Shown here piece after piece: positions 5,967 to 25,922 of a stretch of DNA of 64,000 nt (positions are counted from its first letter, which is position 1; each line of letters opens with the position of its first letter). The translations under genes and the position numbers were made by a program. Below the pieces are notes generated by a model. That model did no database searches, was not told the origin of the DNA, and saw only the letters and a list, made by a program, of their open reading frames with translations. The DNA comes from an uncultured Clostridia bacterium (GTDB lineage Bacteria > Bacillota > Clostridia > Christensenellales > UBA1242): NCBI GenBank assembly GCA_947629745.1, contig CANREZ010000004.1, positions 8,808 through 72,807 of the forward strand, given 5' to 3'.

Positions 5967-6120
5967 GATAAAAATTAAATTTTATACCATAGACAGTACG
6001 GGACATATGTCTTAATAATCGTACCGAGGTTAAAATGTTTAGATTGTGAATTTTGCAACCTTACGCTTTAACTTTGGCGTAAGGTTTTATTTTTATCCAC
6101 ATTTATAAAGGAGGATAATA
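5967..6120 (+). promoter_or_regulatory. Ribosomal protein L10 leader-like 5' UTR with terminator/attenuator hairpin
   Basis: About 150 nt of untranslated leader lies between the promoter and rplJ. A perfect 10-bp stem AACCTTACGC (6057-6066) / GCGTAAGGTT (6078-6087) is followed by TTATTTTTAT, 30 nt before the rplJ RBS. This matches the known L10(L12)4 autoregulatory attenuator layout of Firmicutes. Confidence 0.7.
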
Positions 6121-7379: not shown

Positions 7380-10300
7380 TTATTTCACCTTCATTCTACG
7401 TCTTAGTACGAAGAATATCACAACGCCTGCAACCACTGCGACCGATGCTATCACTATCACTATGATTGCCGCGGTATTTAGAGGTTGAGTACGGGTGAGT
7501 TTGTAGGATGCGACTAGTTGTCCTTCCTTGGTAAATATTTGTATCCAGTTGTCACCAACTGTCCTTAGTGTCAATTCACGTCTTACGTTCTCACCAGCGG
7601 TCTCGGCATTGATCTCAATTGGAGTGCCATAACCCGTTGCTGTGATGTAGCTATCACCAATCTGACTGTAGATGACATTGGTATTGTAGTAGACGACTAT
7701 TTCCTTGCTCGTGCTAGTACCAAAATCTATGGATGCACTAACTGCTGGATTTTCGTCGTTGATCCATACCACGAAGTCAAATGCTCGAGTCTCGTTGTAT
7801 CCTGCAAGTCTTGCTGTCACATACACGTGATATGTGTCGTTGCCTGTGAGGGTAGAGGAGAGGATCAAGCTATTGTCATTTGGTATCTCGTAATTTTCGT
7901 TAGCACCTTTGCTCACTCTGTCGATTGTAAATCCAAGATTTGAGGAAATACTGACAAAGGATGTAGCAATGGTTGGGCTAATTATCACGAAATTGTACTT
8001 CGTCATAATTGGCGTTGGGGTGTCATTTGGCTTCCTACTATCGGTCACGAAACTTGTGATGGACACACTGTATCTGCCCGGATCATTAAATGAATACACA
8101 TAGCCACCACCTGCACCAATATTTGTAGCAGTGATTGTATTGCCATTTAGTGTAGCAGTCACCTCTGGGCTAGTGGATGCGTATAGCGATCTATTGGATA
8201 GCGTGAGTGTCACACCAGAGTTTGTGATGTAACCCTCGATTGGGGTATCCTCGTTTATCATGAATTCCACAGCGTTGATGATGTAGAATTCCACATAGTT
8301 GTTAGTGCCAAATACTTGTCTATTACCTGCGAGGTCATAGAATTCTAGTCTATGGCGACCGGTTGTAGTAATGGATAAGGTAAATTTCTCTGCTGCGGTC
8401 GTGTAGTAGGTCTGCACGTAGTGACCGTTATAGTAGTAGTCTGCCTGCACCATGTTGCCTGGCACAGAGTAGAATGCGTCAAACGTGACGACTACGCCGC
8501 TAGTAGCAAGCCTCATGTCACTGATGCCCTCTATCACTCCATCCTCACCAGCTATATCCATATCGGTGAATGAAGGATGAGCTATATTGCTCTCGGATGC
8601 GATGCGGATGATCTCTACATAACGCTCAGCACCCATAGAGCCTGTGCCGTAGATTCTAAATAAATTACGATTGTTGCTATTTGCTACACGCTCGACAACT
8701 AAGTTATTATTCCTATTGACACGGATTAAGATATAGTTGCCGGATATGTCACCAGTTGTGTCTCCGTCAAATGTGATATTTAGTTCATCACTTTCTGGTT
8801 TGTCAAATATTGATGTGACATAGAATGTGTGTAGAGGCCTTGTGTTGTACACTGCTGCGAGTGGACTTGCGGTGAACCTCTGCTCAATGCCATTTACCAC
8901 ACCTATCACGGCGTAGGTAGATAGATTGGATATAATCTTCCTGATATACAGGTCATTTGATGTATCGCTATATCCTAGGCCATTGGTGATGGACAATCTG
9001 TATGTGCCCTCGAGTGTTAGGGTATAACCCTTGGTCACATTGTCTATCACTTGGGTGATATTACGATTTAGGGTAGAGTCGAAATATGTCCTCTCCACTC
9101 TCACCGTTGCACCAAATCTGCCGTCAGACCAAGTGACTTTAAAGTCCTCGGATATTTCGGTTGGATTATTCCTATCACGGCTGATGCCGGATATCACTTC
9201 ATCACCCACGTTGGTCACAATAATATTTTGTAATTCATGAGTGATCTCAAATTCATAGAAGCTTGTGAGTGGATGACCTTCGGTGTCAAATTGACCGTTG
9301 GTGACAAGCTCAATTCGGAATCTAAATGACTTCACGTCTCCACTCCTAAGCACGACAGTTATCGTCCTTAGACTATTTATCTCGCTGATTGTGATATCTG
9401 CGAAACTGAGTGGGCTTGTGGTATTGTATGTCTGCCAGCCAAGGTAACTATTATTTGGGTCCATATAACTAATTGTAGACTGATAGGTTGGTGATGGGAA
9501 GGTCATTGTCACGTGATGAGCGGTGTAATTGACATCATCTATTGTCACATGAGACCATGCGCCATAATCAATATCCACAGTGTATTGCACGCCAAATGCG
9601 TAATATTCTTCACTAAGTCTATCGAAGTTGTCAAGGGTGGTAAATTTGTATGCACCTACTCCAAAGACAAATACATCATCTGCATTTGGATGTGATGGGA
9701 TTGCTTTGCCGCGTGCATCTTGGCTTAGCAAGTTCCATGCGTTGTTGGTGAATTGATACACCTCGAATCTAACTAGCTCAGTCTTGCCACCCGGCACGGT
9801 ATCCCTTGGGATGGTGATGGAGAATTCGTTAGCCGATAGTTGCACTGGCACTATCTTTAGAATTGGTGTTGGGATAGTATAGACGAATGCTAAGTCGTAC
9901 GTGCTATCATATCTATTGATAAATCTGATATTGAATGAATAGGAAGTTTTAGCAGTATCTGCCTCAATTGCAGCAATTGCTGAATTAAACTCGGCAATGA
10001 ACGCATCAAAACTCTCTATACCATTTATCCTTGGGTCGTTCTTTATATCATAAAGTGTGCCATTCTCATCACTGATTGTCACACGCTGCCATCCATCGAC
10101 TGCGCCTGACATGGTGACTAGTTCTAGTCCCTGACCATTGATTGCCTCATCAGATGGGGTGACGTTAGAATATGTGTTAGTGCCAAGGTTTGTGTACCTA
10201 AGTGTTGGAGCGAATGTGTTAGCTCCGTCGGATAGATGCACGACATATTTGGTGTAGTTGCCTGCTTGGTCTACTTCCACAAACTCATAGTAGCCTGCGA

Positions 10301-13300
10301 TATCTCCGGCATAAATCCTAAGAATATCGGCTGCGGTGATTGTCTCAGTATTTGCTGGCCAAGAGATGAAACTATTGTTGTAATCACTTGAATTGAATGA
10401 ATTACTTGGAGTGTAAGTAGAGTAATTGAAGTCATCGTTAGCTGTTCCAAGTTTTTTGAAATATATCATCTGTGTTTCAAGTGTGCTATTGTTATTTACA
10501 AATTCGGTGGCAGATGAGATTGGGAAGAAATATGATGATTCATAATCTTCTCTATTACTTAGCCATCTATCACTATCTAGCAATCTATCGAAGTTTAGGG
10601 TAGGAGCGGTGCGGTCGATTGTGACCTGTATGTTCGTCTCATGATTGCTGTCATAGTGGACAATCTTTGCCGAGTACGTTCCCTCATGATTGCCACATAT
10701 CTTAGTCATATCGATTGTGTAACGCACGTAATCAGCGCGAGAGTCTTCTACTTGTAGAGCCTCAGGCATCTCCACACCATTGACTGTCAGTTTGTTGCTG
10801 CTATCAATTGACACATTGTAGGTTGTGCCGTTGTAACTAATCTGGATATTAGTTAGATCGATACGAGCCTCAAATATAGTCTTGTAGTCGTTTAGAGTGA
10901 GATACAATTCTTGGTCATTGATATTGTTGTACACGACGTTGCGTACTGTGCCACCTGTGGTCGTCTCATCAGTGAATGTTGGGATGAACGAATGGTTACT
11001 GCCTCTGCTAAACTCAGCGTTTGGCGTGTCGTATTGGATTAGGAAGTTGAACGAGAATTTGCTTGCGATATTCGATGGGTTGTTCTCCTCGAATATATCC
11101 TTCATATGCAGCGATAACGCATAATTTGATGCCGCCTGCACGGTAGTTGTAGCAATTGTGTCTGAGTCCCAATCATCGGTATTAACTTTATTAGGATCTA
11201 CTAACACGCTATCGAGGATATATCTAGTTGCTCCACCATCTACGTATGAGAGTTGCTTGTAGAGTGGGAAGTATGTCTCCTCGTTTAACTTGATTGCATT
11301 CTCTATAAAGTCTTGTGCATTATCACCAGTAATATTTAACGCACTGAGTGCAGCATATGTGTTGTACTTATCTAGTGCAATATTTAGCGTTACTGGCAAT
11401 TTCTTATCAGTAAATGCAAGCGTTGAGGAGTTGTTGATATATGTCTGTAGCAGCGATGCATTTAGCGTCTCAGATACAGTACTGCCTAGTTTGAAACTTG
11501 TCCCGCCACCTACTTGGAATTTTAGTTGATCCTCATCCACAACTGCTGGATCAATGCTAAATACACCAGACCTATCGACAATTATGGTGAAGTACTTAAT
11601 CTTTTTATCCTTGCTGCCCTCTGGCACATCTTGTGAATACGTTCTCTTGATGACATACAGTCCCTCGCGGGTGCTGCCGTTTAGTTCATTTATTGTGCCG
11701 GATGCTACACGGGTATTGCCACTCTCATTTGCTACAGTGTACTTATTGTTACCACCGTTATCAAACGTTAATTGATGCCAGGTAGCGTCCTGTGTGCCAA
11801 ATGGGAATGTGATTTGATTAGTGTCATAGTCATTGCCATTTTCACTAAATAGATTGTTGAAACTTAGTATTCCATTTATATCACTCATGGTTGTGGAACT
11901 GGAGCTAAGCAGAGCAGCATATCTATCTAGACTGAATGGGAAGTATGCATACTGCACACTTGCCACTGTATATGAACTTACATTACTTAGATATGTGAAG
12001 TGCAACTGTGTTGCGCTGACATTACGCCAGAGGATGTTGTTTGCAGCCATCACTTTGCCATTATTGTTCTCCACAAAGATGATGCCAAGGGTGTTATCGA
12101 AGTTCATCTCAACGGTCGTCATCGACTGGTTACCAGCGGCATCAGTCACGCGGATATTTATAGCACCCTCACCACTATACACAGCATTTTGTTGATTAAG
12201 TGGATGTTGCGTTGTATCAGCGAAGTATTGTAAGAATTTATGTACAGTAGGGGAGTAAGTGGTTGGAGTGAGGTTAGTTACTGATCCTCCCTCACTTGCT
12301 AGACTGCCATCTACAAGTACATCGGATATTCCAACAAACACATAGTTCTTATTTGAACCATTATTCTGTTGTTCAATAGGAGTTTTGTCATCAGTTGCTT
12401 CAGAACCTTTTACAATTCCCGTGTCACTTGCGGTGTTTGTAGCCTTGCCTAAGATACCAAGTATTTCGCGAGAAACTTTTGTTCCATCGCTATCAGCATA
12501 TCCATCAATCTCAAAGGCTTTGTTTGCCGACCAATACACTGTGGTGTCATTGGTGATTATATTTAGACTATTAGTTGCCTTAGGATGTAGATAGATATAT
12601 GGTTGAGATTTGTCTATCATCACTGGGATATTTGCCTCATTGCCTGCTTGATCTACTAAGTGGAAGTAATATATAGTGGACGTTGCAGTGTAGAGGATTT
12701 GGCTATTTAGAGGATTCGTCACACTCGTGCTGCCATATGCATCACCGTTGTAGTTGTATGGCGTCCATGCAGCATTAGTGTTATCAAATATATCTTTCAT
12801 AGCAGAGAGGCTAATCTTATAGTCAGTTGATACGCCTCCGCCGATATTGTTATTTGTCAAGATATATTTCTTAGCAGCGTTGCTATCATAGCTTAGTTGA
12901 TAAGACTTGTAAGATACGCTAATCCTTGCACCACTTTGTTTTTGGAAGAAATGCAATCCAAAAGCATTGCTGGTGATATTAGGCTTAGTTACAGGATTTC
13001 CTGTAGCAGAGTCTATATTCCATAGATATCCACCATTGCTCGATAGTGCGTCATACACTTGGATATCCCCAATAGGTGTGGTGTCTATCACAAAGGTGTA
13101 GACTATCTCTGCGAGCTTGCCATACTTTACCACAAACTCATAGTTGCCGTCATCGGTTAATGTGGTGTAACTATCTTGATTGCTACCTGCGAAGTAACTC
13201 TCGAATTGGTCATTTGACACGACAGGAGTGTACTCAGCGTTTGTAGTCTCGAAGCTCTTCCTCCTAATCTCCACTTCGTATGGAGAGCAGAAGTAACTAT

Positions 13301-15236
13301 AATTTAGATAGTTTGCATACTCAGTTTTCTTTGCACTGTCGCCATTAGAGCTATCCACTTTCTCTGGATTGTAGCCCACGGTCATCACGACGTTTTTGTT
13401 GGTGAAGAATGGACTGGATAGCGGTGCGGTGTCATGGTTATTTTCATTCATTGTGAGTATTGCGGTCTTTGGCTGGCCATCGGTCTTAGCGAATATGAAG
13501 TACTCGCTATACACATTGGTTGAGCGCTCGTTGAATGTGAATGAAATCTTGATGATGTAGAATCCTGCTTCCATTCCAAACGTGTTGTTGAAATACAAGT
13601 TCGTTGTGGAGGTTGGGCTCTCTTGTGCTTTAAATTCCTCAATCGTGCGTGCATTGTAGTAATATATCTTGCTAACCGGTGTGTTGCCCTCTAGTGCAGC
13701 CAATCCGTATACATCGAAGTGCAATCCAGATAAATTAGTGCTTGGGATTAACAAGTCACTGAATTTGTCATATTGACTTGAACCATTAGTACCATTTTTG
13801 TCACTTAGTGACTTGTAGATATTGCTGTTGCTGTCTGTGGTCACTTGATAAACATTCATTCTTGCGGTGTAGTTAGCATCGAATGTGTAACCATCCTGTG
13901 AGTAATACATAGGGATAGTTTGCAGTGAACCATCAATATTTTTCTCAGCATAAAGCCTTGCGCCATACACGTGTAGCTCAAAGTTTTCACCAACTACGTT
14001 GCTTGCATCACTCAATATTTTTCCGTTGTATGCACAAGGTATGTCTAGCACGCGGTATCCATCATTGGTCAGTATCTGGTAACTAGCCGTGAAGTAGTAG
14101 GTCGATAGGTCGTAGAATACTAGTCTTGCGATATAATGGTTCACTCCATTAATCTTGGTAGGGGATACCTCTAGTGTCTGCTCAGGTTGTCCCTCGGTCG
14201 TTATATGTAATGTACGTTTGCCATCACTATCTCGAGTAACAGATGTGTCATATAGCACACGGGTCTCTCGTTGTTTGTAGAATGATAGGTGATAGTTGTC
14301 TATATCATACTCTAGAGTTGGACGAGTCGACTGATTGTCGTAGTAGAAATATGCGAGTTCGTTGTCGTCATTGAGTTTCACATCGTTGTCTGTGGTCTCA
14401 CTCTCGGTATCTGGCATAGAGTAATTTAGGAACTCAGGGTAGTTGTTGTATGTCTTTTCACCTTCACCTGTATAACTAGTAGCGAATTGTTCATCAGAGA
14501 ATAGGTAGAAGGAGTATTCGTATTTTAAGTTGTTGACACTCTGACCCAGTTGGTCAAAATTACTATTTGAATTATTCTTGTCCAATCTTAGATAAGAATA
14601 GATGAAAGATAGTGTGTACTGACCGGTCTCTACGTTACTGAGCAAGCTGTATTTATTTAGGTCAATGACTCCAACGAAATAACTAGTATTTATGGAGTTG
14701 CTCCCACCTGTTTTTTCTGATCCGTTGATGATACCTAGTTTATCGTTCTTCTCTTCGCCACCATTTTTATATTCAGATAGACTAATTGATGTGTCACCGT
14801 TAATTGTGAGAGTGACTGAGGTGATATTGGTGTAGTATTTGCTATTTTTATCAGCAGATGATACTTCATAAGCTGTCTGGCCGTTGGTAGCATTCTCAGG
14901 ATAAGCGAAGCTAATGTATAGCACATCGGTTGTATTTTGATTCTTGTAGGTCTCTAGCATCACATCATCGCCAGGGTTAACGTTGGTTGATGAGTCTATG
15001 TATGAATTACTGGATGTGCCTTGGGCTTCCTTTATCACATCATCCCAGTGGTCCTTTGGATTGGAAGAAAAAGACAAATGTTGTACCTTTAGAGGTTGGC
15101 CTTCACCCAGGGTAGTGACCAGGGTTTCGCCTTCGGCATTGTATCTATACGTTTTATCATAAACTAATACACATCCAAGCACTAAGCATAGCACGGACAT
15201 GATGATAGCGGATATTCTTGCATACACCTTTGACAT
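7380..15236 (-). CDS. Giant (2618-aa) surface protein with an N-terminal signal/lipobox-like sequence and a C-terminal TM anchor; candidate T4SS-associated adhesin
   Basis: ATG at 15236 lies 8 nt after GTGGAGAG; the tracked GTG at 15251 is part of that RBS. The N-terminus is MSKVYARISAIIMSVLCLVLGC (hydrophobic core ending VLGC). The C-terminus is AAIIVIVIASVAVVAGVVIFFVLRRRMKVK. The body is N/T/S/Y-rich and beta-rich, with no enzymatic motif seen. The gene is co-oriented with and downstream of traG. Confidence 0.85.
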   Translation of the reverse strand: MSKVYARISAIIMSVLCLVLGCVLVYDKTYRYNAEGETLVTTLGEGQPLKVQHLSFSSNPKDHWDDVIKEAQGTSSNSYIDSSTNVNPGDDVMLETYKNQNTTDVLYISFAYPENATNGQTAYEVSSADKNSKYYTNITSVTLTINGDTSISLSEYKNGGEEKNDKLGIINGSEKTGGSNSINTSYFVGVIDLNKYSLLSNVETGQYTLSFIYSYLRLDKNNSNSNFDQLGQSVNNLKYEYSFYLFSDEQFATSYTGEGEKTYNNYPEFLNYSMPDTESETTDNDVKLNDDNELAYFYYDNQSTRPTLEYDIDNYHLSFYKQRETRVLYDTSVTRDSDGKRTLHITTEGQPEQTLEVSPTKINGVNHYIARLVFYDLSTYYFTASYQILTNDGYRVLDIPCAYNGKILSDASNVVGENFELHVYGARLYAEKNIDGSLQTIPMYYSQDGYTFDANYTARMNVYQVTTDSNSNIYKSLSDKNGTNGSSQYDKFSDLLIPSTNLSGLHFDVYGLAALEGNTPVSKIYYYNARTIEEFKAQESPTSTTNLYFNNTFGMEAGFYIIKISFTFNERSTNVYSEYFIFAKTDGQPKTAILTMNENNHDTAPLSSPFFTNKNVVMTVGYNPEKVDSSNGDSAKKTEYANYLNYSYFCSPYEVEIRRKSFETTNAEYTPVVSNDQFESYFAGSNQDSYTTLTDDGNYEFVVKYGKLAEIVYTFVIDTTPIGDIQVYDALSSNGGYLWNIDSATGNPVTKPNITSNAFGLHFFQKQSGARISVSYKSYQLSYDSNAAKKYILTNNNIGGGVSTDYKISLSAMKDIFDNTNAAWTPYNYNGDAYGSTSVTNPLNSQILYTATSTIYYFHLVDQAGNEANIPVMIDKSQPYIYLHPKATNSLNIITNDTTVYWSANKAFEIDGYADSDGTKVSREILGILGKATNTASDTGIVKGSEATDDKTPIEQQNNGSNKNYVFVGISDVLVDGSLASEGGSVTNLTPTTYSPTVHKFLQYFADTTQHPLNQQNAVYSGEGAINIRVTDAAGNQSMTTVEMNFDNTLGIIFVENNNGKVMAANNILWRNVSATQLHFTYLSNVSSYTVASVQYAYFPFSLDRYAALLSSSSTTMSDINGILSFNNLFSENGNDYDTNQITFPFGTQDATWHQLTFDNGGNNKYTVANESGNTRVASGTINELNGSTREGLYVIKRTYSQDVPEGSKDKKIKYFTIIVDRSGVFSIDPAVVDEDQLKFQVGGGTSFKLGSTVSETLNASLLQTYINNSSTLAFTDKKLPVTLNIALDKYNTYAALSALNITGDNAQDFIENAIKLNEETYFPLYKQLSYVDGGATRYILDSVLVDPNKVNTDDWDSDTIATTTVQAASNYALSLHMKDIFEENNPSNIASKFSFNFLIQYDTPNAEFSRGSNHSFIPTFTDETTTGGTVRNVVYNNINDQELYLTLNDYKTIFEARIDLTNIQISYNGTTYNVSIDSSNKLTVNGVEMPEALQVEDSRADYVRYTIDMTKICGNHEGTYSAKIVHYDSNHETNIQVTIDRTAPTLNFDRLLDSDRWLSNREDYESSYFFPISSATEFVNNNSTLETQMIYFKKLGTANDDFNYSTYTPSNSFNSSDYNNSFISWPANTETITAADILRIYAGDIAGYYEFVEVDQAGNYTKYVVHLSDGANTFAPTLRYTNLGTNTYSNVTPSDEAINGQGLELVTMSGAVDGWQRVTISDENGTLYDIKNDPRINGIESFDAFIAEFNSAIAAIEADTAKTSYSFNIRFINRYDSTYDLAFVYTIPTPILKIVPVQLSANEFSITIPRDTVPGGKTELVRFEVYQFTNNAWNLLSQDARGKAIPSHPNADDVFVFGVGAYKFTTLDNFDRLSEEYYAFGVQYTVDIDYGAWSHVTIDDVNYTAHHVTMTFPSPTYQSTISYMDPNNSYLGWQTYNTTSPLSFADITISEINSLRTITVVLRSGDVKSFRFRIELVTNGQFDTEGHPLTSFYEFEITHELQNIIVTNVGDEVISGISRDRNNPTEISEDFKVTWSDGRFGATVRVERTYFDSTLNRNITQVIDNVTKGYTLTLEGTYRLSITNGLGYSDTSNDLYIRKIISNLSTYAVIGVVNGIEQRFTASPLAAVYNTRPLHTFYVTSIFDKPESDELNITFDGDTTGDISGNYILIRVNRNNNLVVERVANSNNRNLFRIYGTGSMGAERYVEIIRIASESNIAHPSFTDMDIAGEDGVIEGISDMRLATSGVVVTFDAFYSVPGNMVQADYYYNGHYVQTYYTTAAEKFTLSITTTGRHRLEFYDLAGNRQVFGTNNYVEFYIINAVEFMINEDTPIEGYITNSGVTLTLSNRSLYASTSPEVTATLNGNTITATNIGAGGGYVYSFNDPGRYSVSITSFVTDSRKPNDTPTPIMTKYNFVIISPTIATSFVSISSNLGFTIDRVSKGANENYEIPNDNSLILSSTLTGNDTYHVYVTARLAGYNETRAFDFVVWINDENPAVSASIDFGTSTSKEIVVYYNTNVIYSQIGDSYITATGYGTPIEINAETAGENVRRELTLRTVGDNWIQIFTKEGQLVASYKLTRTQPLNTAAIIVIVIASVAVVAGVVIFFVLRRRMKVK

Positions 15237-15280
15237 ATTCTTACTCTCCACTTTTAATTACCTTTTAGTCTTTTGACCTT

Positions 15281-17502: not shown

Positions 17503-17604
17503 AAAACCCTCAACTAGATTTCACTATTATACACTAGTATAATAAAATTTCCTTATTCTTGTCAAAAAATTGTAAGGAGTTTTTTATTCTTTGTGGAGGT
17601 AAGG

Positions 17605-17861
17605 GATGTGACACGCCAGTGTCCTTGAGTATAGTGAGATTATCCATGAAAATGCGACGTAAAACATAACTGTGTATCAACTTTATTCTAATTTAAGGCG
17701 CCCCGTAGTAGGGGGAGCTGTTGGCTCTTGCCAACTGAGGGGATTGTACTCAATTATGACCTTTTTATATAGGCCGCCCTTAGTAAAGGGGGCTGGATGC
17801 GTTAGCAGACTGAGGGGATTGAGCCGACTTTTATCCCTCTTTGTGCCAACTTTATGCCCAC
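17605..17861. repeat. Repeat mosaic A in the traG/pilin divergent spacer (b1 partial, a1, a2 modules)
   Basis: b1 is at 17605-17640 (GATGTGACACGCCAGTGTCCTTGAGTATA). a1 is at 17695-17746 and a2 at 17771-17823, both of the type AAGGCGCCCCGTAGTAGGGGGAGCTG-hairpin-CTGAGGGGATTG. A TGCCAACTTTATGCCCAC tail resembles the b-module end. Confidence 0.8.
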
Positions 17862-18141
17862 TAATAGAAAGTAGCTACCATATTTTTTCATTTCTTATAA
17901 TTTGCTTGTCATCATCAAGGGACATATCGTGCCATCTGATGGGACTAATGTCGACTTCTATCTCCCTCCATATTTTCCTACTCCACCCATCTTTTCTATA
18001 TATTACTATAATAATTATAAATATAAGAATATATGTATAAATATCCAAGTAATTTGGCGCACGTTGTGGCACTTTATGCATTAGGATTTATAAAGAAATG
18101 GCAATTGTAGTAAAAAATTTTATAAAACGTGTGAAAAATAT

Positions 18142-18170
18142 TTGACGATGGGCACGGTATTCGCTAAAAT
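18142..18170 (+). promoter_or_regulatory. Predicted promoter of pilin-like gene 1
   Basis: TTGACG (18142-18147), a 17-nt spacer, then TAAAAT (18165-18170), about 45 nt before the ATG. Confidence 0.6.
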
Positions 18171-18216
18171 ATACTTAAGATTGGTAGCAGCGCATGCTAC
18201 TATATGGGAGGGGAAA

Positions 18217-18555
18217 ATGACAAAGTTCTTAACTTTACTAGGAGAGGTTGAATCTGTTCAGGCACAAGATTGGTACACAAAAATCCTAAAGCCAATTTTG
18301 GATGGAGTTAGAATTGCATTGATTCCTATCATAATAATTGCAGCAGCTGCTGGAACAGGCTACGCAATTTGGTTAGGTGTCAAACTTGCAAAGGCTGATA
18401 GCGATGACGAGCGTACCGAGGCAAAGAAGAAGATGATTTACTTCATCATTGCATTCGTTGTGACAATTATCCTGTTAGTTGTGTTACAGATTCTTGCAAG
18501 TAATGTACAAGTTATCTATGACTTGGCAACTAAAACACAAGATGCTGCAGCATAA
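18217..18555 (+). CDS. Small 2-TM membrane protein, VirB2/TrbC pilin-like T4SS component (paralogue 1)
   Basis: ATG 18217 follows GGGAGGGG. Two hydrophobic helices are separated by a charged loop: IPIIIIAAAAGTGYAIWLGVKLAKADSDDERTEAKKKMIYFIIAFVVTIILLVVL. This is collinear with IPAGGTVYAVSIGIKLARADGEESRKEVKKRLVNSIIGLVAVIGLFIILFLYF in ORF 19236-19730. Confidence 0.7.
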   Translation: MTKFLTLLGEVESVQAQDWYTKILKPILDGVRIALIPIIIIAAAAGTGYAIWLGVKLAKADSDDERTEAKKKMIYFIIAFVVTIILLVVLQILASNVQVIYDLATKTQDAAA

Positions 18556-18579
18556 TGAGCAAAAATTTAGTAGAAAAAG

Positions 18580-18606
18580 TAGAGCCGTGAGGCTCTATTT
18601 TTTTTG
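18580..18606 (+). terminator. Rho-independent terminator of pilin-like gene 1
   Basis: Stem TAGAGCC / GGCTCTA with loop GTGA, followed by a T9 run. Confidence 0.85.
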
Positions 18607-18666
18607 TGCATGAGGGTGAGGGATAAAAATTAAAGTTGGTACATAATGTAGGCAAGAATGCTGATT

Positions 18667-18868
18667 GATGTGGCATGCCACTGTCCTTGATTATAATAAA
18701 GTATGTTTGTTTGATTATTCAAAGGAATGAAGTTGGTATGTGGAATAGGCTCTAGTTCCCACCTTAATACCAACTTTGTTACCCACATTCTAATAATAAA
18801 GTGATGGTAGAGTTGTCTTAAATTGTTATAGATAACTCATTACACTTTAGGAGAGTGGCGTGCCACAC
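18667..18868. repeat. Palindromic element formed by b2 (+) and b3 (-) modules
   Basis: b2 at 18667-18743 and a diverged reverse-complement copy b3 at 18761-18868 are separated by 17 nt. The termini are GTGGCATGCCACTGTCC and GGAGAGTGGCGTGCCAC. There is an internal AAGTTGGTATGTGG / CCAC..ATACCAACTT pairing. The a4 fragment ACTGAGGGGGATTGAG follows at 18867-18882. Confidence 0.8.
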
Positions 18869-19235
18869 TGAGGGGGATTGAGTGTGCTTACGTGCTCGCC
18901 TTGGTACCAACACTTAACCTATCTATATACTATCTGGTCAAATTGATAGTTGCACAAACTACCACGATGTTCCCATAAACACTAATACTATTGTCAATAA
19001 GCATCTATATTATGACAAAAACGCATTAAATTAGAGCAACAAAGAAACCGCCAAGATATGAGGAAGGGAGAGTGGTTATGATCACTATAATTTTCCCATA
19101 CGGCGTCATACTCTAGAGAGTGTGTAACTAGATATAATTATGTGGAATAAATATGAATCAATAATAATTTAGATACGAATTGTATAGACAAGATAATATT
19201 TTTGGTGTAAAATATGATATATGAGGTATGAAAAT

Positions 19236-19730
19236 ATGAGGACCAAGAATTTAAAGAGAAATCTTGCCATAGTATTTGCCGTGAGCTTAGTGCTAGTGCT
19301 AATTAGTATGGTTGTGATGGAAATTTGCACCGGCCATAGTGTGAGTGCACTGCTAAATAATGGCATATTAGGTGACCCTAATACTTCAAGCAGTATGCCA
19401 AATACTAGTGGTGATCAATATACCGCTGATGACCCTAGATTCGCTGAGATCATGGGTGGATTCAAGGTATTCTTCATTGTGATGTTGATAGTGATACCTG
19501 CTGGTGGCACGGTGTATGCAGTGTCAATTGGTATCAAACTTGCACGTGCTGATGGTGAAGAGTCGAGGAAGGAAGTAAAAAAACGTTTGGTCAATTCCAT
19601 CATCGGTCTAGTTGCTGTGATTGGTCTATTCATTATATTATTCCTATACTTCAATAACTATCGCGTTATAAATGATTACCTCCGCCAGATGTTCGGCACT
19701 CTGCATTCATCCAATATTCCACAAGAGTAA
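19236..19730 (+). CDS. Small membrane protein, VirB2/TrbC pilin-like T4SS component with signal-peptide-like N-terminus (paralogue 2)
   Basis: ATG 19236 lies 9 nt after TGAGG. The N-terminus is MRTKNLKRNLAIVFAVSLVLVLISMVVMEI. The C-terminal 2-TM core is collinear with ORF 18217-18555. Confidence 0.7.
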   Translation: MRTKNLKRNLAIVFAVSLVLVLISMVVMEICTGHSVSALLNNGILGDPNTSSSMPNTSGDQYTADDPRFAEIMGGFKVFFIVMLIVIPAGGTVYAVSIGIKLARADGEESRKEVKKRLVNSIIGLVAVIGLFIILFLYFNNYRVINDYLRQMFGTLHSSNIPQE

Positions 19731-19798
19731 ACGTGGTTGATATAACGAAATATTTGGTTTGTGTAAGTAAAAACATATTTAAAATAATAAAAATTAAA

Positions 19799-19825
19799 AT
19801 ATCCCTCAAATGGGATATTTTTTTG
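19799..19825 (+). terminator. Rho-independent terminator of pilin-like gene 2
   Basis: Stem ATATCCC / GGGATAT with a 6-nt loop, followed by a T run. Confidence 0.8.
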
Positions 19826-19893
19826 ATTAATACTACACCTCATTAGGCGATTAGGCGCTCACAAGTGCGGATAAAAATTAATTATAACCTTGT

Positions 19894-20044
19894 AAGGCGC
19901 CCCGTAGTAGGGGGAGCTGGATGCACGAAGTGCAGACTGAGGGGATTGAGCAAGCTCCTACGCTTACCCCACATACCAACTTCATTCTCTCTAGATAATC
20001 AAACAAACATATTTTATATAACCCAGGAGAGTGGCGTGCCACAC
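19894..20044. repeat. Repeat mosaic C upstream of virB4 (a3 module plus b4 module in minus orientation)
   Basis: The first 26 nt of a3 (19894-19950) are identical to a1 (17695-17720). b4 (19969-20044) is about 80 percent identical to the reverse complement of b2 (18667-18743). Confidence 0.85.
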
Positions 20045-20153
20045 AAACTTTTGGGCAAAAAGATAATTTGGGTTATTTTAGTTTGTAAAATGACCCAGAT
20101 GTTGTATAGTATTATATATAATCTAACTTTATTATAGATAGAGGTAAATAAAA

Positions 20154-22820
20154 ATGGCTGCAAAATTTATTCCAAGACGTACTAAACTCAAATTGGAGTT
20201 GTACAAGAATATAACATTCGGGGACGTGGGCATTGCCCTAGTCGGTATCGCGATACTATTCTTGCTACTATTCTCCACATTCCAGTTCCACATATATGTG
20301 GCAATAGCATTCGCTACACTGTGGTGTATGCTATTCGTCCCAGTCTCGGATGGTGTGAAAATTTATGGCGCGGTGATCCTCGCATTCAGATTCATCTCGT
20401 TTAGGAAATCTTATGAGAAGAAATACACCAACAAAGCACATGACATCAAAAAGATTCTCCCATACGAGGGTATCTCCCTTGGACAATTCATCTCCTATGG
20501 TGAATACTACGGCATGGTGCTTGAGATCGACCCTATAGAATTCTTCCTCTTAGATGAGGAGAAACAAGAGGGCGTGGTGCGAACCATGACCAACGCAATC
20601 CATAGACTTGGCATGGACCAGTACATGACCATTGTGAAATTGAAGAAACCTATGATCCTCGACCAATTGCAAAATTATGAAGACGACAAATACAATACAC
20701 TGCTTGATATGACAGAACGTGGTCTGTATGAGAAATATGAGATTGAGGCAAGGTCACCTGTCTTTGAGGAAAGATTAGCCACAATCAGACAACTAAATTA
20801 CGACAACAAGATCCTAAAGAGCCACTACTACTTCGTAGTCTACGACAAGAGTAGGGAGCAACTTAGGAGTTCCATAATGGGTATGATATCGGCACTAAGT
20901 GCCTCAGCTACGCCAATAACTGCCAACATATTGTCAGGAAATGAGCTTTTAGCGTTCCTAAAAGCAAATTACGATAGCAACTTTGATGAACGTGATCTAG
21001 ATATCCTCACAGCAGATGAGCAAGTGGCTTGGACTAGGCCAAACAAAGTGAGGTTCTCTAGCCTAAATACTTATATCGACGACGTGGCATACCGCACGTT
21101 CACCATATCCGAATATCCAATATATGTGCCAAATGCTTGGGCTTATCCGTTATTTGAGCTCGACCAATGTAGAGTCGTGGTCAATATAGAGCCTATAGGG
21201 AAGTTTGAGGCTGAGAAGATGCTGGATAGATCCATCGTGGAGGTGGATGGCAAACTGCGTAAGGCTGGTGGAGAGGGCGCAAAGATTGAGTTACAGACCC
21301 ACCGTGAGACATTGACCGACTTGCTCGCATCACTTAAGAATAGTAGTGAAAACCTCTTCAACGTCAATATCCATATCGTGGCAGAGGATAGCCAAAAGAA
21401 AGAAGTGCGTGCAACGCTAAAGCAGAATGGCTATAGATACACCGAGAATTTCGGTAGACAAGTGGATGCCTTCATATCTACTTCTCCATCAAGGCTCGAC
21501 AAATTGAAGTATTACAAACGTGGTATGCAGACAAGTACTGTTGCTGCTATGTTCCCATATATCTCGTCAGCTTTGCAAGATAAGCGTGGATTCTACCTCG
21601 GGTATAACCAATATCCAGTGTTCACCGATTTCTTCCAGAGAAACGATATTCGTACCAATTCCAATATGATGATAATAGGAAAGTCTGGTAGCGGAAAATC
21701 TTATGCTACGAAAACTCTACTTGCTAACCTCGCTGCGGACAACACGCGCATATTTATCCTCGACCCTGAGGATGAGTACCGACCAATATGCGATCACTTG
21801 GGTGGCAAGATTATCGATGTCGGTAATAGTAGTGATGGTATCTTCAATCCATTCCATATATTCACCACACTTAAGGCTGATGAGGGTGATAGCGATGACT
21901 CCTACAACGCGCATTTGCAGTTCCTTGAGCAATTCTTTAGGCTGATATTGCCGGGGATGAGTGCCGATGCTTTTGAGAAGTTAAATTCATTGTTAGTCAA
22001 ACTGTATGCATCAAAGGGCATTGACGAGACCACAAGGCTTGAGGCTCTAAGACCTGAGGATTATCCAATATTTGACGACCTTATCAAGATCATAGATAAG
22101 GAACTGAAGACCGAGAAGGACGATTATCAGCACTCGCAGCTGCAGACCATTCGTGTCTATATAGAGAAATTCGCTTCAGGCGGCAGGAACTCCAACCTTT
22201 GGAATGGTCCAACCAGCATTGAGACCAATGAAAACTTCGTTTGTTTCAACTTCCGTACTCTAACTAACAACCGAAACGACATTATCACCAACGCGCAGAT
22301 GTTACTTGTCTTCAAGTATCTAGATAACGAGATTAGTAAGAACAAGGACTTCAACGACAAGTACTTCCCAGAGATGCCAGGTGAGGATAGGGATGAGAAC
22401 GAATTCAGGCGAATAATCGTGGCTGTCGATGAGGCGCACGTCTTCATCAATCCAAAGTATCCAATAGCACTGGACTTCATGGCTAACATGGCAAAACGTA
22501 TCAGAAAGTATCATGGAATGCAGATAATTATCACGCAGAATATCCACGACTTCGTGGGATCAGAGGAGATTGAGAGGCAGTCCACTGCAGTTATCAACGC
22601 GTGCCAATACTCCATGATCTTCTCACTTGCGCCAAACGATATGACCGAGCTTATCACTCTGTATAAGAACGCAGGTGGTATCAACAAGGAAGAGCAAGAC
22701 CAGATCGTGACCGCACCTCGTGGACAATGCTTCCTCATCACGGGCCCTATGAATAGGAGTATAGTGAGGATTGAGGCACTGCCAACTGTGCAGTATTTAT
22801 TCAAACGTGACGATGAATAG
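20154..22820 (+). CDS. virB4: VirB4/TrsE-type T4SS ATPase with N-terminal membrane (VirB3-like) segment
   Basis: RBS GAGG. N-terminal helices are VGIALVGIAILFLLLF, IYVAIAFATLWCMLFVPV and YGAVILAFRFI. Walker A is IIGKSGSGKSYATK and Walker B is RIIVAVDEAHVF, followed by IIITQNIHDF. Confidence 0.9.
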   Translation: MAAKFIPRRTKLKLELYKNITFGDVGIALVGIAILFLLLFSTFQFHIYVAIAFATLWCMLFVPVSDGVKIYGAVILAFRFISFRKSYEKKYTNKAHDIKKILPYEGISLGQFISYGEYYGMVLEIDPIEFFLLDEEKQEGVVRTMTNAIHRLGMDQYMTIVKLKKPMILDQLQNYEDDKYNTLLDMTERGLYEKYEIEARSPVFEERLATIRQLNYDNKILKSHYYFVVYDKSREQLRSSIMGMISALSASATPITANILSGNELLAFLKANYDSNFDERDLDILTADEQVAWTRPNKVRFSSLNTYIDDVAYRTFTISEYPIYVPNAWAYPLFELDQCRVVVNIEPIGKFEAEKMLDRSIVEVDGKLRKAGGEGAKIELQTHRETLTDLLASLKNSSENLFNVNIHIVAEDSQKKEVRATLKQNGYRYTENFGRQVDAFISTSPSRLDKLKYYKRGMQTSTVAAMFPYISSALQDKRGFYLGYNQYPVFTDFFQRNDIRTNSNMMIIGKSGSGKSYATKTLLANLAADNTRIFILDPEDEYRPICDHLGGKIIDVGNSSDGIFNPFHIFTTLKADEGDSDDSYNAHLQFLEQFFRLILPGMSADAFEKLNSLLVKLYASKGIDETTRLEALRPEDYPIFDDLIKIIDKELKTEKDDYQHSQLQTIRVYIEKFASGGRNSNLWNGPTSIETNENFVCFNFRTLTNNRNDIITNAQMLLVFKYLDNEISKNKDFNDKYFPEMPGEDRDENEFRRIIVAVDEAHVFINPKYPIALDFMANMAKRIRKYHGMQIIITQNIHDFVGSEEIERQSTAVINACQYSMIFSLAPNDMTELITLYKNAGGINKEEQDQIVTAPRGQCFLITGPMNRSIVRIEALPTVQYLFKRDDE

Positions 22821-22825
22821 GATAG

Positions 22826-22852
22826 AGCAAGGTATAGTGCCTTGCTTTTTTT
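22826..22852 (+). terminator. Rho-independent terminator of virB4
   Basis: Stem AGCAAGG / CCTTGCT with loop TATAGTG, followed by a T7 run. Confidence 0.85.
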
Positions 22853-22962
22853 GTGTGGAGTAGGTGGCGGGGTGCGGGCTGCTAGCAGAGCTAGCAGGCC
22901 CACGAGCCCCTGGGGCTCCCGCCGCTCCCGCGGCGGAGCACCCCGCCACATACTTCGCACAA
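22851..22962. other. GC-rich four-way-junction palindrome (candidate structured RNA or ssDNA/cruciform element)
   Basis: The 25-bp outer stem pairs 22851-22875 with 22938-22962, including a perfect 12-bp GTGGCGGGGTGC/GCACCCCGCCAC. It encloses three abutting hairpins at 22876-22901, 22904-18 and 22919-36. By my count 69 of 87 nt in 22863-22949 are G/C, in an AT-rich context. Confidence 0.7.
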
Positions 22963-23018
22963 AAATAGCACACACTATATCAAATTCTACTATGACAATA
23001 ATTTTATACTAAATGCAT

Positions 23019-23047
23019 TTGATTTTTGTCGTAATATGTAATATAAT
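23019..23047 (+). promoter_or_regulatory. Predicted promoter of the VirB6-like gene
   Basis: TTGATT (23019-23024), a 17-nt spacer, then TATAAT (23042-23047). Confidence 0.6.
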
Positions 23048-23080: not shown

Positions 23081-25768
23081 ATGTTCTCTGTAATGAATCT
23101 AGGCATCATCGATACCATTATGAGCTGGTTGATGAATCTATTTTCAACTGGATTGTTGCTTGCAGTTAATTTGATTTACGCTATATTTAGCAAACTATTA
23201 TTCCTGATCGGTGCAGCGTTCGCTAATATTGCAGATTTCTTCCAAGCAGTTTTTCGTGCCCTTGCAGGTATCGGCACTCCAGGGTATAACAAGGTACTCC
23301 AGATGGAGTTTACCGAACAAGTTGCTCAAGACCCTATCCTTAGAGTCATAACTAGTGAAGTTGTCATCAATCTATTCATATCCATGATGGTCCTTGCAAT
23401 AGGCATCGTCATCGTATCTACTATCGTTGCTATGATCAGACAGGAATATGCTACCGATGGTGGAGATAAGAATAGTAAATCTGAGATTTTAGGCAAAGCC
23501 GTCAAAGCTTTTGCAAATTTCGTCATAGTGCCTGTGGCATGCGTGGTGGGAATACTCCTTGCTAACACATTGCTCCGCTGGGTAGATTATGCTACGGCGA
23601 ATGGCAATGATACCACAATCGGCGCACAAGTATTCTACGCATCAGCGTACAATGCCAATAAGATGCGAAGTAGTGGCCATAAGTCTAGCCAGTTAGTCTC
23701 CCTAGAGGGTACGATATTTGAAAATTTTGACTTGACCGCATTTATATACAATCCAAGTGGTGGTGCGGGACAGTATTTTACTAGTGATGAACAGTCACCT
23801 AATACAGGTTGGAGTAATAGTATCTATAGCAATGGTCAAACTATTGGTAACAACAATATGACTTGCAACGAGATTGCTAATCTTATCGACCAAGCCTTCT
23901 TAAACTTTGATGAAATTATAGAGAATGACCAAGACCACGACCTAGGTTTCGGGGCTACATATTTCGATTACAAATATCAGGATACTGTGGACGAGTACTA
24001 CAATCTCGGCGCTATCAATTACATAATCTTCATCGCGGGAGAAGTTGCGGTCATGTGGATGATGCTCAATATGACTCTCGGTATGATGAAACGTATCTAT
24101 CTTGCCGCTATTTACTTCGTCATAGGTCCTCCAATTATCGGTCTCACGCCTATCAAGGACGGCCTTAGCAAATGGAGAGGAGACTTCATCAATAATGTCC
24201 TATCCGCATTTGCTCCAGTCGTGGGATTAAATATATTCTTCCAGATATTGCCAGCTATCAATACTATCAATATCTTTGCAAGTAATCAATCATCCTACAA
24301 TGCTATCATCCATATGCTATTTGCTATAGTGGGCCTCATGGTGCTAAATGAGATGTCGAAGGCCATTTCCTCGCTACTTGGCACAGGCGACGCCCTCGAG
24401 ACAGGAAAAGGTATGTCAAAGCAAGTTGCTGCCGGTGCTGCTAAAGTCGGTGCAGTTGCTCTAGGTTTAGGCGGTGCAACAATAAAGGGTGTTTCTATGG
24501 CTAATAAACTTCGTCAATCTATGTCTAACAGTATGGCCGCAGGAAAAGCAAATAATTTAGATGCAGGTGAACTTGATACATATCGAAAAGAAGAAGCCGT
24601 TTCAAAAAAATATGCAGGTCAGAAAGTTGGCGATATTGTATCTGATTATTCAAAAGACAGAGCAGAATTTAATAAAACTTATGGCGGAACTACGGCGGAA
24701 CGTGATGCCAAAGAAAAAGCAGCTCAAGCTTCCATGTCAGCTGATGATTTTAAAGCTTGGAAAGAAGAGCGTGATAATAAGAGAAAAGATTTAGATACTA
24801 GGAAAGACGACTTAGATATTATTAGAAAGGGTGCATATTTCCAGAGGGATGCAAAATCTGGACAATTCACCAGGAATAAGAGCGCTGAAAATGCTAAGAA
24901 ATTAAAGAAACTCAGCAATAGACTTGATAATAATGATATAGTAGAGACTGTTGACAGTAGTGGCAAGAAGACATATGAATCGAATCTTCAAAATAGATGG
25001 CATCAATTTACGAAAAATCCAGGTGCAGTGGGAGGTTGGATTACAGATAAAGGTAAATCTCTCTTAGGTGGTCTTAGAGAATCTACTGTGGGTAGATTAA
25101 ATGAAGGAATCGATAGTTCCATTAATATGCTGGGTGAAGCAGCTCATTTTGATATGAAGAAAGCTAGGTCCAAAGCAGCTCAAGGAAAAGGTAAGATACT
25201 TGAGCGTGTGTTAGGAGGCGTAGGAAATAAGCTTGCCGAGCCTATCGACTTTACTGGCCCAACAGGTTCACAAGCAGCTGCTGCTAGATTTAGTGCAGCA
25301 CAACAAGCTCTATCCGGTGTTGATACTAAAGCATTTGCTAAAGCGTTCCTAGATAAAATGTATTCTGCATTAAAGAGTAAAGATATAAATGCTAATAAGT
25401 TAGGCATGAAAATGGCAAAGCAAGCAGGTATTAAACTTGATAAAACTACCATAGATGATATTAAAAATGGAAGTATCGCTAAAGGTAAATTCACAGATGA
25501 TGAAAATCGTCAAAGGGCGGTCATCAATGCTGCTACATTGCATATGTCTGCAGGAAAGACTCACATGGATAGTGAATTGCTAGCACAACTTGAGAGGAAC
25601 TCTGACCACGTTGTATCAAAATTTGTTCACGAACTTAGAGAATTATCTAAGAGTACTAAGGATAGCAACAAGAAGATTATTGATGCAAGCAAGAGTGACA
25701 ATCAGAAACTTATCGACAAACTTGACGAATTGGTTAAACTCTCAAGAGATGATAAGAAGAAGCCATAA
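23081..25768 (+). CDS. Polytopic membrane protein, VirB6/TrbL-like, with a long hydrophilic K-rich C-terminal domain
   Basis: RBS GGAGG. About 7-8 hydrophobic helices lie in the first ~440 aa (e.g. VVINLFISMMVLAIGIVIVSTIVAMI, FANFVIVPVACVVGILLANTLL, IYLAAIYFVIGPPIIGL). The next ~450 aa are charged and coil-like. The gene sits directly after virB4, as in many T4SS loci. Assignment rests on topology and context only. Confidence 0.55.
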   Translation: MFSVMNLGIIDTIMSWLMNLFSTGLLLAVNLIYAIFSKLLFLIGAAFANIADFFQAVFRALAGIGTPGYNKVLQMEFTEQVAQDPILRVITSEVVINLFISMMVLAIGIVIVSTIVAMIRQEYATDGGDKNSKSEILGKAVKAFANFVIVPVACVVGILLANTLLRWVDYATANGNDTTIGAQVFYASAYNANKMRSSGHKSSQLVSLEGTIFENFDLTAFIYNPSGGAGQYFTSDEQSPNTGWSNSIYSNGQTIGNNNMTCNEIANLIDQAFLNFDEIIENDQDHDLGFGATYFDYKYQDTVDEYYNLGAINYIIFIAGEVAVMWMMLNMTLGMMKRIYLAAIYFVIGPPIIGLTPIKDGLSKWRGDFINNVLSAFAPVVGLNIFFQILPAINTINIFASNQSSYNAIIHMLFAIVGLMVLNEMSKAISSLLGTGDALETGKGMSKQVAAGAAKVGAVALGLGGATIKGVSMANKLRQSMSNSMAAGKANNLDAGELDTYRKEEAVSKKYAGQKVGDIVSDYSKDRAEFNKTYGGTTAERDAKEKAAQASMSADDFKAWKEERDNKRKDLDTRKDDLDIIRKGAYFQRDAKSGQFTRNKSAENAKKLKKLSNRLDNNDIVETVDSSGKKTYESNLQNRWHQFTKNPGAVGGWITDKGKSLLGGLRESTVGRLNEGIDSSINMLGEAAHFDMKKARSKAAQGKGKILERVLGGVGNKLAEPIDFTGPTGSQAAAARFSAAQQALSGVDTKAFAKAFLDKMYSALKSKDINANKLGMKMAKQAGIKLDKTTIDDIKNGSIAKGKFTDDENRQRAVINAATLHMSAGKTHMDSELLAQLERNSDHVVSKFVHELRELSKSTKDSNKKIIDASKSDNQKLIDKLDELVKLSRDDKKKP

Positions 25769-25877: not shown

Positions 25878-25922
25878 ATATAATAAGAATATTGCTTTGA
25901 TGTATATTATGAGGTGATAAAT

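Follow-up and report, generated by a model that had tools for sequence, protein, structure and literature searches.

In mycoplasma-type integrative and conjugative elements (ICEs) neither a relaxase nor an origin of transfer (oriT) has been identified, and transposon hits in non-coding DNA of ICEA, one of them adjoining cds16/cds17, abolish transfer (PMC6030558). The single-strand origin (sso) of pBAA1/ICEBs1 relies on three stem-loops, and on structure over sequence (PMC4595007). Homologues of cds16/cds17 flank the subject of this paper, a very GC-rich palindromic element at positions 22851-22962 of a 64,000-nucleotide stretch of DNA (the window; positions 8,808 to 72,807 of contig CANREZ010000004.1, assembly GCA_947629745.1) from an uncultured Clostridia bacterium. 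The element lies in a type IV secretion system (T4SS) locus, between the terminator of virB4 and the promoter of a gene for a VirB6-like protein. A preliminary description had seen in it a tight four-way junction that could be a structured small RNA (sRNA), a site acting on single-stranded DNA (ssDNA), a nick or recombination site, or a cruciform. We find that none of these four functions is positively supported. On present evidence the element is probably an orphan small palindromic foldback element, not a new class of T4SS component.

Fold of the element and its absence from related loci

Folded as plus-strand RNA (ViennaRNA), 22851-22962 gives exactly the four-way junction of the preliminary description, both as the minimum free energy (MFE) structure and as the centroid. 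The 25 pairs of the outer stem (22851-22875 with 22938-22962) include 12 perfect GC-rich pairs (GTGGCGGGGTGC/GCACCCCGCCAC), two G-U pairs (U22856-G22957 and G22858-U22955) and one G-A mismatch (22863/22950). The stem closes three hairpins (H1 to H3), and only 0, 2, 0 and 1 bases are unpaired at the junction. The pairing proposed for this stem thus holds, but its extent had been set too short: the inverted repeat is 33 nt long with 88% identity (22843-22875/22938-22970), inverted symmetry can be followed in the arm alignment at about 36 of 44 positions out to 22833/22979, and self-BLAST aligns the inverted arms with 70.7% identity over 150 nt.

The comparison with shuffled controls suggested in the preliminary description was made with 200 dinucleotide shuffles. 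The plus-strand RNA folds with -89.2 kcal/mol (shuffles -51.5 ± 3.8; z = -9.97), and none of the 200 shuffles was as good; the minus strand reaches -83.1 kcal/mol (z = -7.56). The plus strand is better by 6 kcal/mol because two non-Watson-Crick positions are G-U pairs on this strand only. As ssDNA, 22843-22970 folds with -59.2 kcal/mol on the plus strand (z = -12.1) and -55.0 kcal/mol on the minus strand (z = -9.7). The earlier count of 69 G+C in the 87 nt from 22863 to 22949 was correct, against 39.9% G+C for the whole window, in which the element is the sole 80-nt stretch with at least 70% G+C. When the window was folded in sliding 112-nt segments (mean -23.0 kcal/mol, standard deviation 6.1), the element came out as the most stable fold of the 64 kb: its -86.6 kcal/mol is better by 37 kcal/mol than the -49.5 kcal/mol of the next unrelated site. 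Two of the four GC-rich perfect hairpins of the window are inside the element.

Relatives of the VirB4 protein were sought among 5.8 billion proteins. The nearest clusters are 76% (P0002), 75% (P0003), 67% (P0004), 63% (P0005) and 61% (P0016) identical in amino acids, none being closer, and 15 loci from five VirB4 clusters (L121-L130 and L140-L144) were compared with the window; no VirB4 relatives were found in viral contigs. No element-like sequence is present in the 15 loci, where the maximum G+C of an 80-nt stretch is at most 0.61 and the best 112-nt fold has -44.5 kcal/mol or is weaker. Their virB4 genes are followed by a plain terminator directly after the stop codon and then by AT-rich DNA. 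Since the 15 loci of five VirB4 clusters are without it, the element is not a conserved T4SS component. The preliminary description had named absence from homologous loci in advance as the outcome refuting that the element belongs functionally to the T4SS, and its absence beside VirB4 proteins of 60-76% amino acid identity goes against such a role; searches of plasmids, phages, viral contigs, JGI metagenomes, Rfam and 5.8 billion proteins gave no homologue either.

The loci differ also in gene order. In 15 of 15 relatives the coupling protein gene on the minus strand is followed by pilin gene(s), the VirB6-like gene, virB4 and a gene for a large protein, whereas the order in the window is pilin, pilin, virB4, element, VirB6-like gene, as in none of the relatives. 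Because virB4 and the VirB6-like gene are swapped only here, the element marks a junction unique to this genome.

The DNA behind the virB4 terminator allows the outer stem to be dissected. In L140 it reads T8-GT-ttaag-AC-A5T (TTTTTGT-ttaag-ACAAAAA), in L127 and L128 it reads T7-ATGT(G/C)-A5T, and in the window T7-GTG and CAC-A5T are separated by about 100 nt, the arms being TTTTTGTG and CACAAAAA. By this comparison the outer stem has an ancestral AT-rich base, and GC-rich DNA fills the former loop. The outer stem is then a composite, because its AT-rich pairs pre-exist in the relatives and the GC-rich part alone is new. Without the insert the spacer would measure about 155 nt, the spacers of the relatives being 93-437 nt, mostly 93-190 nt, long. 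The arms of the insert contain GTAG-GTGGCGGGGTGC on the left and, read as the reverse complement, GTAT-GTGGCGGGGTGC on the right; its terminal inverted repeats of 19-20 nt, which differ by one indel and one mismatch, pair together.

The features of the element and its flanks are listed below. The virB4 identity, its terminator and the -35 hexamer at 23019, all named in the preliminary description, are supported by Pfam, NCBIfam and by terminator and promoter scans.

20154..22820, plus strand: virB4-type ATPase gene, 888 aa, of mycoplasma-ICE type (Pfam P-loop_TraG, DUF87 and AAA_10, and NCBIfam)
22818-22820: stop codon of virB4
22824..22852, plus strand: intrinsic terminator of virB4 (terminator scan), hairpin AGCAAGG-TATAGTG-CCTTGCT followed by seven T (22846-22852)
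22833..22979: total detectable inverted symmetry, 147 nt, reaching on the left across the loop and 3' stem of the terminator
22848..22855: left arm TTTTTGTG of the ancestral AT-rich palindrome, base of the outer stem (compared with the spacers of L140, L127 and L128)
22856..22957: GC-rich novelty of about 102 nt in the former loop of the AT-rich palindrome, boundaries uncertain by a few nt; at its ends it carries the inverted sequences TGGAGTAGGTGGCGGGGTGC and, read as the reverse complement, CGAAGTATGTGGCGGGGTGC
22864..22875: left half of the 12-bp GC stem, GTGGCGGGGTGC, with GTAG (22860-22863) ahead
22876..22901: hairpin H1, GGGCTGCTAGC-AGA-GCTAGCAG(G)CCC, 11 bp with a single bulged G and loop AGA (MFE and centroid)
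22904..22918: hairpin H2, GAGCCCC-T-GGGGCTC; in the MFE structure a 3-nt loop closed by 6 bp is preferred to a 1-nt loop closed by 7 bp
22919..22936: hairpin H3, CCGCCGC-TCCC-GCGGCGG, 7 bp with loop TCCC
22938..22949: right half of the 12-bp GC stem, GCACCCCGCCAC, then ATAC (reverse complement GTAT)
22958..22965: right arm CACAAAAA of the same ancestral palindrome (compared with L140, L127 and L128)
23019..23047, plus strand: sigma-70-like promoter of the downstream gene, TTGATT-17-TATAAT
23081..25768, plus strand: gene for a VirB6-like multi-pass membrane conjugal-transfer protein, 895 aa

The element is located 3' of the virB4 terminator, and at least 57 nt separate it from the -35 hexamer downstream. 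Being upstream of the promoter of the following gene, it is outside that gene's transcript, and a promoter scan of both strands detected none reading into it. A mechanically called open reading frame (ORF) of 154 aa (22511-22975, minus strand) runs antisense across the 3' end of virB4 and the whole element, and two reading frames are open through the element. The antisense ORF is almost certainly not a gene, though it could be mis-annotated as one.

The surrounding locus and its repeats

The VirB4 protein matches NCBIfam NF045975 ('VirB4_plasma, Mbov_0397 family') with 601.5 bits against a cutoff of 590. The 895-aa VirB6-like protein matches NF045848 (MMCAP2_0566 family) with 93.4 bits (cutoff 90) and, below cutoff, NF045889 (Mbov_0396), and is 35% identical to the product of L121:1075-3774. 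The cluster holds a VirD4-type coupling protein gene on the opposite strand and two T4SS pilin genes, and it sits in the chromosome between rplJ/rplL and housekeeping genes. When VirB4 was compared with plasmids by tblastn, the best matches were from Spiroplasma and Mycoplasma, with 25-28% identity. Two giant ORFs of the locus, 2623 aa (7380-15251, minus strand) and 1437 aa (25914-30227), gave no Pfam or NCBIfam match, and the 2623-aa ORF had no match among solved PDB structures. Pfam and NCBIfam searches with the ORFs detected no relaxase, DDE recombinase or integrase in the window. The locus at 7380-32203 is a compact T4SS of mycoplasma-ICE type, set in the Clostridia-like chromosome of a walled bacterium. 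D-Ala-D-Ala carboxypeptidases and a gene with a Spo0A_C domain are likewise encoded in the window, and at 5969-6100, upstream of rplJ/rplL, there is a ribosomal protein L10 leader (RF00557, 84 bits); no other Rfam family in the window reaches the gathering threshold.

Every T4SS gene appears to be a separate transcription unit, bounded by a promoter and a terminator. The VirB6-like gene has retained its promoter: TTGATTTTTGT...ATGTA.TA.AAT, a motif at 23019-23047 of the window, occurs also in the L121 region ahead of the VirB6-like orthologue. The motif precedes separate T4SS genes both in the window and in L121 (1000-1050 and 3930-3960), whose VirB4 is 75% identical.

The long non-coding spacers of the T4SS cluster (17503-18141, 18556-19220 and 19731-20153) have lineage-specific repeat modules in common. 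A tandem 75-nt unit (17694-17746, similar to 17769-17821) recurs at 19893-19951 with 100% identical stretches of 27 nt and 20 nt, 17605-17633 resembles 18667-18695, and 18849-18868 is identical to 20025-20044. Inverted copies at 18669-18743 and 19969-20043, 87% identical over 76 nt, bracket the second pilin gene (19221-19730), which is the layout of an invertible and possibly phase-variable segment. The modules were also considered as DNA structured like the element, which was rejected because their fold z-scores are between -2.7 and +0.5; none of them is present in the loci of the 15 relatives. The region 17503-20153 is a lineage-specific mosaic of duplicated and inverted modules, and by this mosaic the T4SS locus has clearly been rearranged recently. 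Different short dispersed repeats, such as GTCATCCTGAGCGAAGTCGAAGGATCCCCTTAGGCGGAGC and GTCATCTCGACCGAAGTGGAGAGATCTCTTATAAT, are found in the spacers flanking the pilin gene of L140 (1100-1240 and 1830-2440). Several lineages of this T4SS family appear to gather small repeats in their spacers.

A 12-bp palindrome, GTGGC(A/G)TGCCAC, occurs three times in the window, only in T4SS spacers (18670-18681, 18855-18866 and 20031-20042); about 0.5 matches are expected by chance when up to one mismatch is allowed. It was not found in the locus of any relative. The palindrome may be an operator. The GC stem of the element starts with GTGGCG and ends with CGCCAC, the half-sites of this palindrome, and the flanks of the palindrome copies and of the GC stem are alike (GGAG.GTGGCG / GCCACA). 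The half-site match, which was found post hoc, is a weak hint either at insertion into the centre of a palindrome copy or at shared protein-binding half-sites.

Mode of arrival and competing explanations

We tentatively read the element as a solitary GC-rich foldback insertion of about 100 nt, similar to REPINs (paired repetitive extragenic palindromes, REPs) or to miniature inverted-repeat transposable elements (MITEs), or as rearrangement filler; any side effect would be no more than REP-like insulation. That an insertion is present and not conserved is read directly from the comparison of loci. The foldback DNA would have entered the loop of the small AT-rich palindrome already present behind the virB4 terminator, either by hairpin- or ssDNA-directed transposition (HUH/Y1-type or similar, acting in trans) or as filler during the virB4/VirB6-like swap. 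The four-way junction would then be the necessary fold of a nested palindrome once one strand is free. At present the insert might form an extra block to 3' exonucleases or to read-through between independently promoted genes, or serve as a supercoil sink. Foldback elements commonly occupy such safe sites, behind a terminator and ahead of the following promoter, and the lineage-specific repeat clutter and the gene swap at the locus are also counted as support for a foldback insertion.

Several observations weigh against this interpretation, the chief weakness being that a mobile family should have relatives, yet no second copy was found. A genome-wide interspersed repeat, the other outcome that the preliminary description had named as refuting, is not seen within the 64-kb window, which contains no other copy of the element; the 13-nt arm, searched with up to two mismatches, recurs nowhere outside it, nor does any other member of a repeat family. 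BLASTN against plasmids and phages gave no match. Two exact 19-20-mers searched in viral contigs had a single match (L131), which is within a 2035-aa ORF and was therefore rejected as a chance occurrence. In JGI metagenomes the 12+12-nt stem was found in only eight hairpins, on contigs of 55-69% G+C and with unrelated interiors, which were likewise dismissed as chance. Six-frame peptides of the element had no match at E <= 10 among the 5.8 billion proteins, and in Rfam nothing in the element reached the gathering threshold; at E <= 10 only generic long-hairpin microRNA (miRNA) models appeared, with 20-23 bits against thresholds of 61-90. Among the matches listed for a loose pattern, GGCGGGGTGC-N50-80-GCACCCCGCC, in a genome collection, all were in high-GC genomes, and none had an extended stem or a low-GC context.

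Other points in the same direction concern the insert itself. By eye, no direct target duplication is visible at 22843/22970, 22851/22962, 22856/22957 or 22864/22949. No transposase or REP-associated tyrosine transposase (RAYT) was found: Y1_Tnp (PF01797) is not among the best 25 of 38 Pfam families matched by 33 window ORFs, the others being weaker than 1e-14, and it is absent from the T4SS ORFs; RAYTs are single-copy and the window spans only 64 kb. Three abutting perfect hairpins with near-zero slack look more 'designed' than the spacers of typical MITEs or REPINs, and the almost undamaged stems imply either very recent arrival or selection for structure. Moreover, the nearest VirB4 is only 75-76% identical, and absence from such relatives means non-conservation, not lack of function in this lineage.

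Among the alternatives, a rearrangement scar is unlikely but deserves to be taken first. GC-rich filler, or palindrome growth by template switching or repair at the virB4/VirB6-like swap, would have left an immobile and functionless sequence. This would explain why the element lies precisely where virB4 with its terminator meets the VirB6-like gene with its promoter, a junction found only in this genome, and why the inverted symmetry extends into the terminator; the nearby junction 19731-20153 is a mosaic of duplicated and inverted pieces from other spacers, and a scar predicts a single copy. The composition of the element is more difficult to reconcile with this origin, as the locus offers no source of 79% G+C sequence and template switching, which copies nearby sequence, does not create GC-rich nested palindromes. 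Nor was the AT-rich palindrome made by the swap, because relatives with the normal gene order have it too.

Three functional explanations are each rather improbable, to an equal degree. The first is a cis site used on ssDNA in transfer, either a single-strand origin or an entry site for primase, as in the sso of pBAA1/ICEBs1 or the G4-type single-strand initiation site (ssi), or the oriT of a relaxase-less mycoplasma-ICE-type system. Either strand folds with extreme stability as ssDNA, and the genes on both sides belong to the mycoplasma-ICE type; also counted in its favour are the three stem-loops of the described sso, the lack of a known oriT in mycoplasma-type ICEs and the transposon hits that abolish transfer of ICEA. 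The element is, however, missing from all five related lineages with the same T4SS, and, as the window yielded neither a relaxase nor a DDE recombinase or integrase, DNA transfer by the locus is unproven. Its arms are without -35 and -10 hexamers, which leaves the proposed single-strand initiation or promoter site without positive support; the CS-6 motif of ssoA (TAGCGT) is in none of the loops (AGA, T/CTG, TCCC), and the symmetry of the element provides no strand preference, whereas sso function is orientation-specific.

The second is a structured RNA, present as a 3' extension of read-through virB4 mRNA (exonuclease block or insulator) or as an independent sRNA. The advantage of 6 kcal/mol of the plus-strand fold would suit it, and REP-type hairpins 3' of genes are established stabilisers of mRNA (reviewed in PMC3733652). 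But the element is situated behind a good terminator and no promoter reads into it on either strand; the big stem has no trailing T-run on either strand and is therefore not itself a terminator. Rfam yields no match except miRNA models far below threshold, the element is not conserved, and two G-U pairs among four imperfections are not significant. With no promoter reading in and no Rfam match, the sRNA of the preliminary description is not positively supported.

The third is a binding site or cruciform in double-stranded DNA that regulates the downstream promoter or organises the locus, perhaps through a factor binding GTGGC(A/G)TGCCAC. GC-rich palindromes in AT-rich flanks extrude readily. 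The element is 70-200 bp upstream of the -35 hexamer, the ends of its GC stem are half-sites of the 12-bp palindrome with similar flanks, and three further distinct palindromes are inside it. Yet the half-site match is short and post hoc, the three copies of the 12-bp palindrome are not independent because they are part of duplicated modules, and this palindrome is missing from all relatives. The three inner palindromes differ from one another, unlike an operator array, and no regulator gene was identified.

Still less probable is that a relaxase-less mycoplasma-ICE-type T4SS of a walled Firmicute has gained a structure-specific cis site, whose four-way junction, on the strand being transferred, would be the entry point for nicking or complementary-strand priming, or else a junction-shaped substrate behind the virB4/VirB6-like swap. 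We know of no oriT or sso in mycoplasma-ICE-type systems; if true, this reading would provide the first candidate cis element for a poorly understood family of conjugation systems. An assembly or chimera artefact of the metagenome-assembled contig is very improbable: the contig is the only record of this VirB4 (a cluster of one), element and gene-order swap are both unique to it, and a de Bruijn assembler could be misled by the short exact repeats nearby, 20-27 nt long, but the flanks run on without a break, the genes on either side are complete and have a terminator, promoter and ribosome-binding site of their own, the element is symmetric inside a palindrome that relatives also have, it does not by eye look like any common sequencing adapter, and artefactual hairpins arise at contig ends, not 22 kb in.

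If the element is a foldback insertion, as we tentatively prefer, the consequences for T4SS biology are small. It would show a foldback element of very high G+C content establishing itself in an AT-rich Firmicute, and a 'tight four-way junction' arising as a by-product of nested palindromes and an older AT-rich palindrome. Its use would lie mainly in marking recent rearrangement of the locus and in seeding searches for a REPIN-like family that may exist in uncultured gut Clostridia. Its importance would be higher only if it acts in cis on transferred DNA or is conserved beside virB4 with compensatory changes.

Comparison with known classes of palindromic elements

A number of described classes could be set aside. 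The element is not an intrinsic terminator: whichever strand is read, the T-run comes before the big stem and A-rich DNA after it, and the terminator scan calls only the hairpin 22824-22848. An Frpo-type ssDNA promoter was rejected as no promoter-like site is present in 22833-22979 on either strand, and an ssoA-type origin because TAGCG(T/A) is absent and the loops are AGA, T/CTG and TCCC. By eye, the R'' (RYYYAAC) and R' (GTTRRRY) boxes of an integron attC are absent at or near the ends of the element. The statement that it is not tRNA-like was correct: ARAGORN finds no tRNA or tmRNA in the window, and the loops are 1-4 nt long. A sigma-54 enhancer site was dropped, there being no TGGCAC-N5-TTGC between element and gene, and so was a G-quadruplex, the element not having four close G-runs.

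With sso, ssi and Frpo sites the element shares compact, stable hairpins that would persist on ssDNA coated with single-stranded DNA-binding protein (PMC4595007), and a position within a DNA-transfer gene cluster; sso function is structure-dependent. Its ssDNA forms three stable hairpins, where a pBAA1/ICEBs1-type sso or G4-type ssi would have three stem-loops that support priming of the complementary strand. As regards an oriT, Pfam and NCBIfam detected no relaxase domain in any ORF of the locus, and mycoplasma-type ICEs have no identified relaxase either (PMC6030558). It differs from these sites in having no sequence similarity, conserved loop motifs or promoter hexamers, in being nearly strand-symmetric, and in not being conserved among related T4SS loci, at a locus for which DNA transfer is unproven. 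The mobile GC clusters of yeast mitochondria are likewise short, very GC-rich palindromic inserts in AT-rich intergenic DNA (PMC4478555), but they belong to another domain of life, show no sequence relation, are multi-copy and are shorter.

Like MITEs and foldback elements, the element is small, non-coding and intergenic, with terminal inverted repeats and a long hairpin, and insertions of the IS1397 type into REP loops are, as it is, centred in a pre-existing palindrome (PMC3184786, PMC1525189). In contrast to MITEs, for which a target-site duplication, a parent insertion sequence (IS) or other copies would be found, it has none of these, and its G+C content is far above that of the host, which MITEs usually match.

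REPs and REPINs number tens to hundreds per genome, whereas the element is single in 64 kb; each of its arms is not palindromic, unlike a REP unit, and its middle consists of three perfect abutting hairpins. Its host is a Firmicute of 40% G+C, and the words 'Firmicutes' and 'Clostridi' do not occur in one survey of REPs (PMC3733652). On the other side, the element is about 100 nt long, extragenic and just 3' of a gene, no target duplication accompanies it, its two GC-rich ends, which are inverted, pair with one another as a two-arm hairpin (PMC3116915) and enclose a middle under less constraint, and a 'clover' alternative fold to which it can be likened has been described for REPINs. One arm is headed GTAG and the other GTAT, in the manner of GTAG-REPs (PMC3733652). 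Among the matches listed for the loose genome pattern is a true REP family with GTAG/GTGG tags, from Opitutaceae and from an Agathobaculum metagenome-assembled genome (MAG) of the gut. This family, GT(A/G)G-GCGGGGTG-CCCT-CACCCCGC, is arranged in many Opitutaceae MAGs (L012-L120) as inverted dimers of 70 nt whose 26-nt spacers vary, its unit is also present as an inverted pair in the Agathobaculum MAG, a gut Firmicute (L003:463-541), and it fits the REP classes of PMC3733652. The stem GGCGGGGTG is the same in the element as in this family, an identity partly built into the search pattern. As the arms are moreover not themselves palindromic, the tie between the element and REPs is one of resemblance, not of membership.

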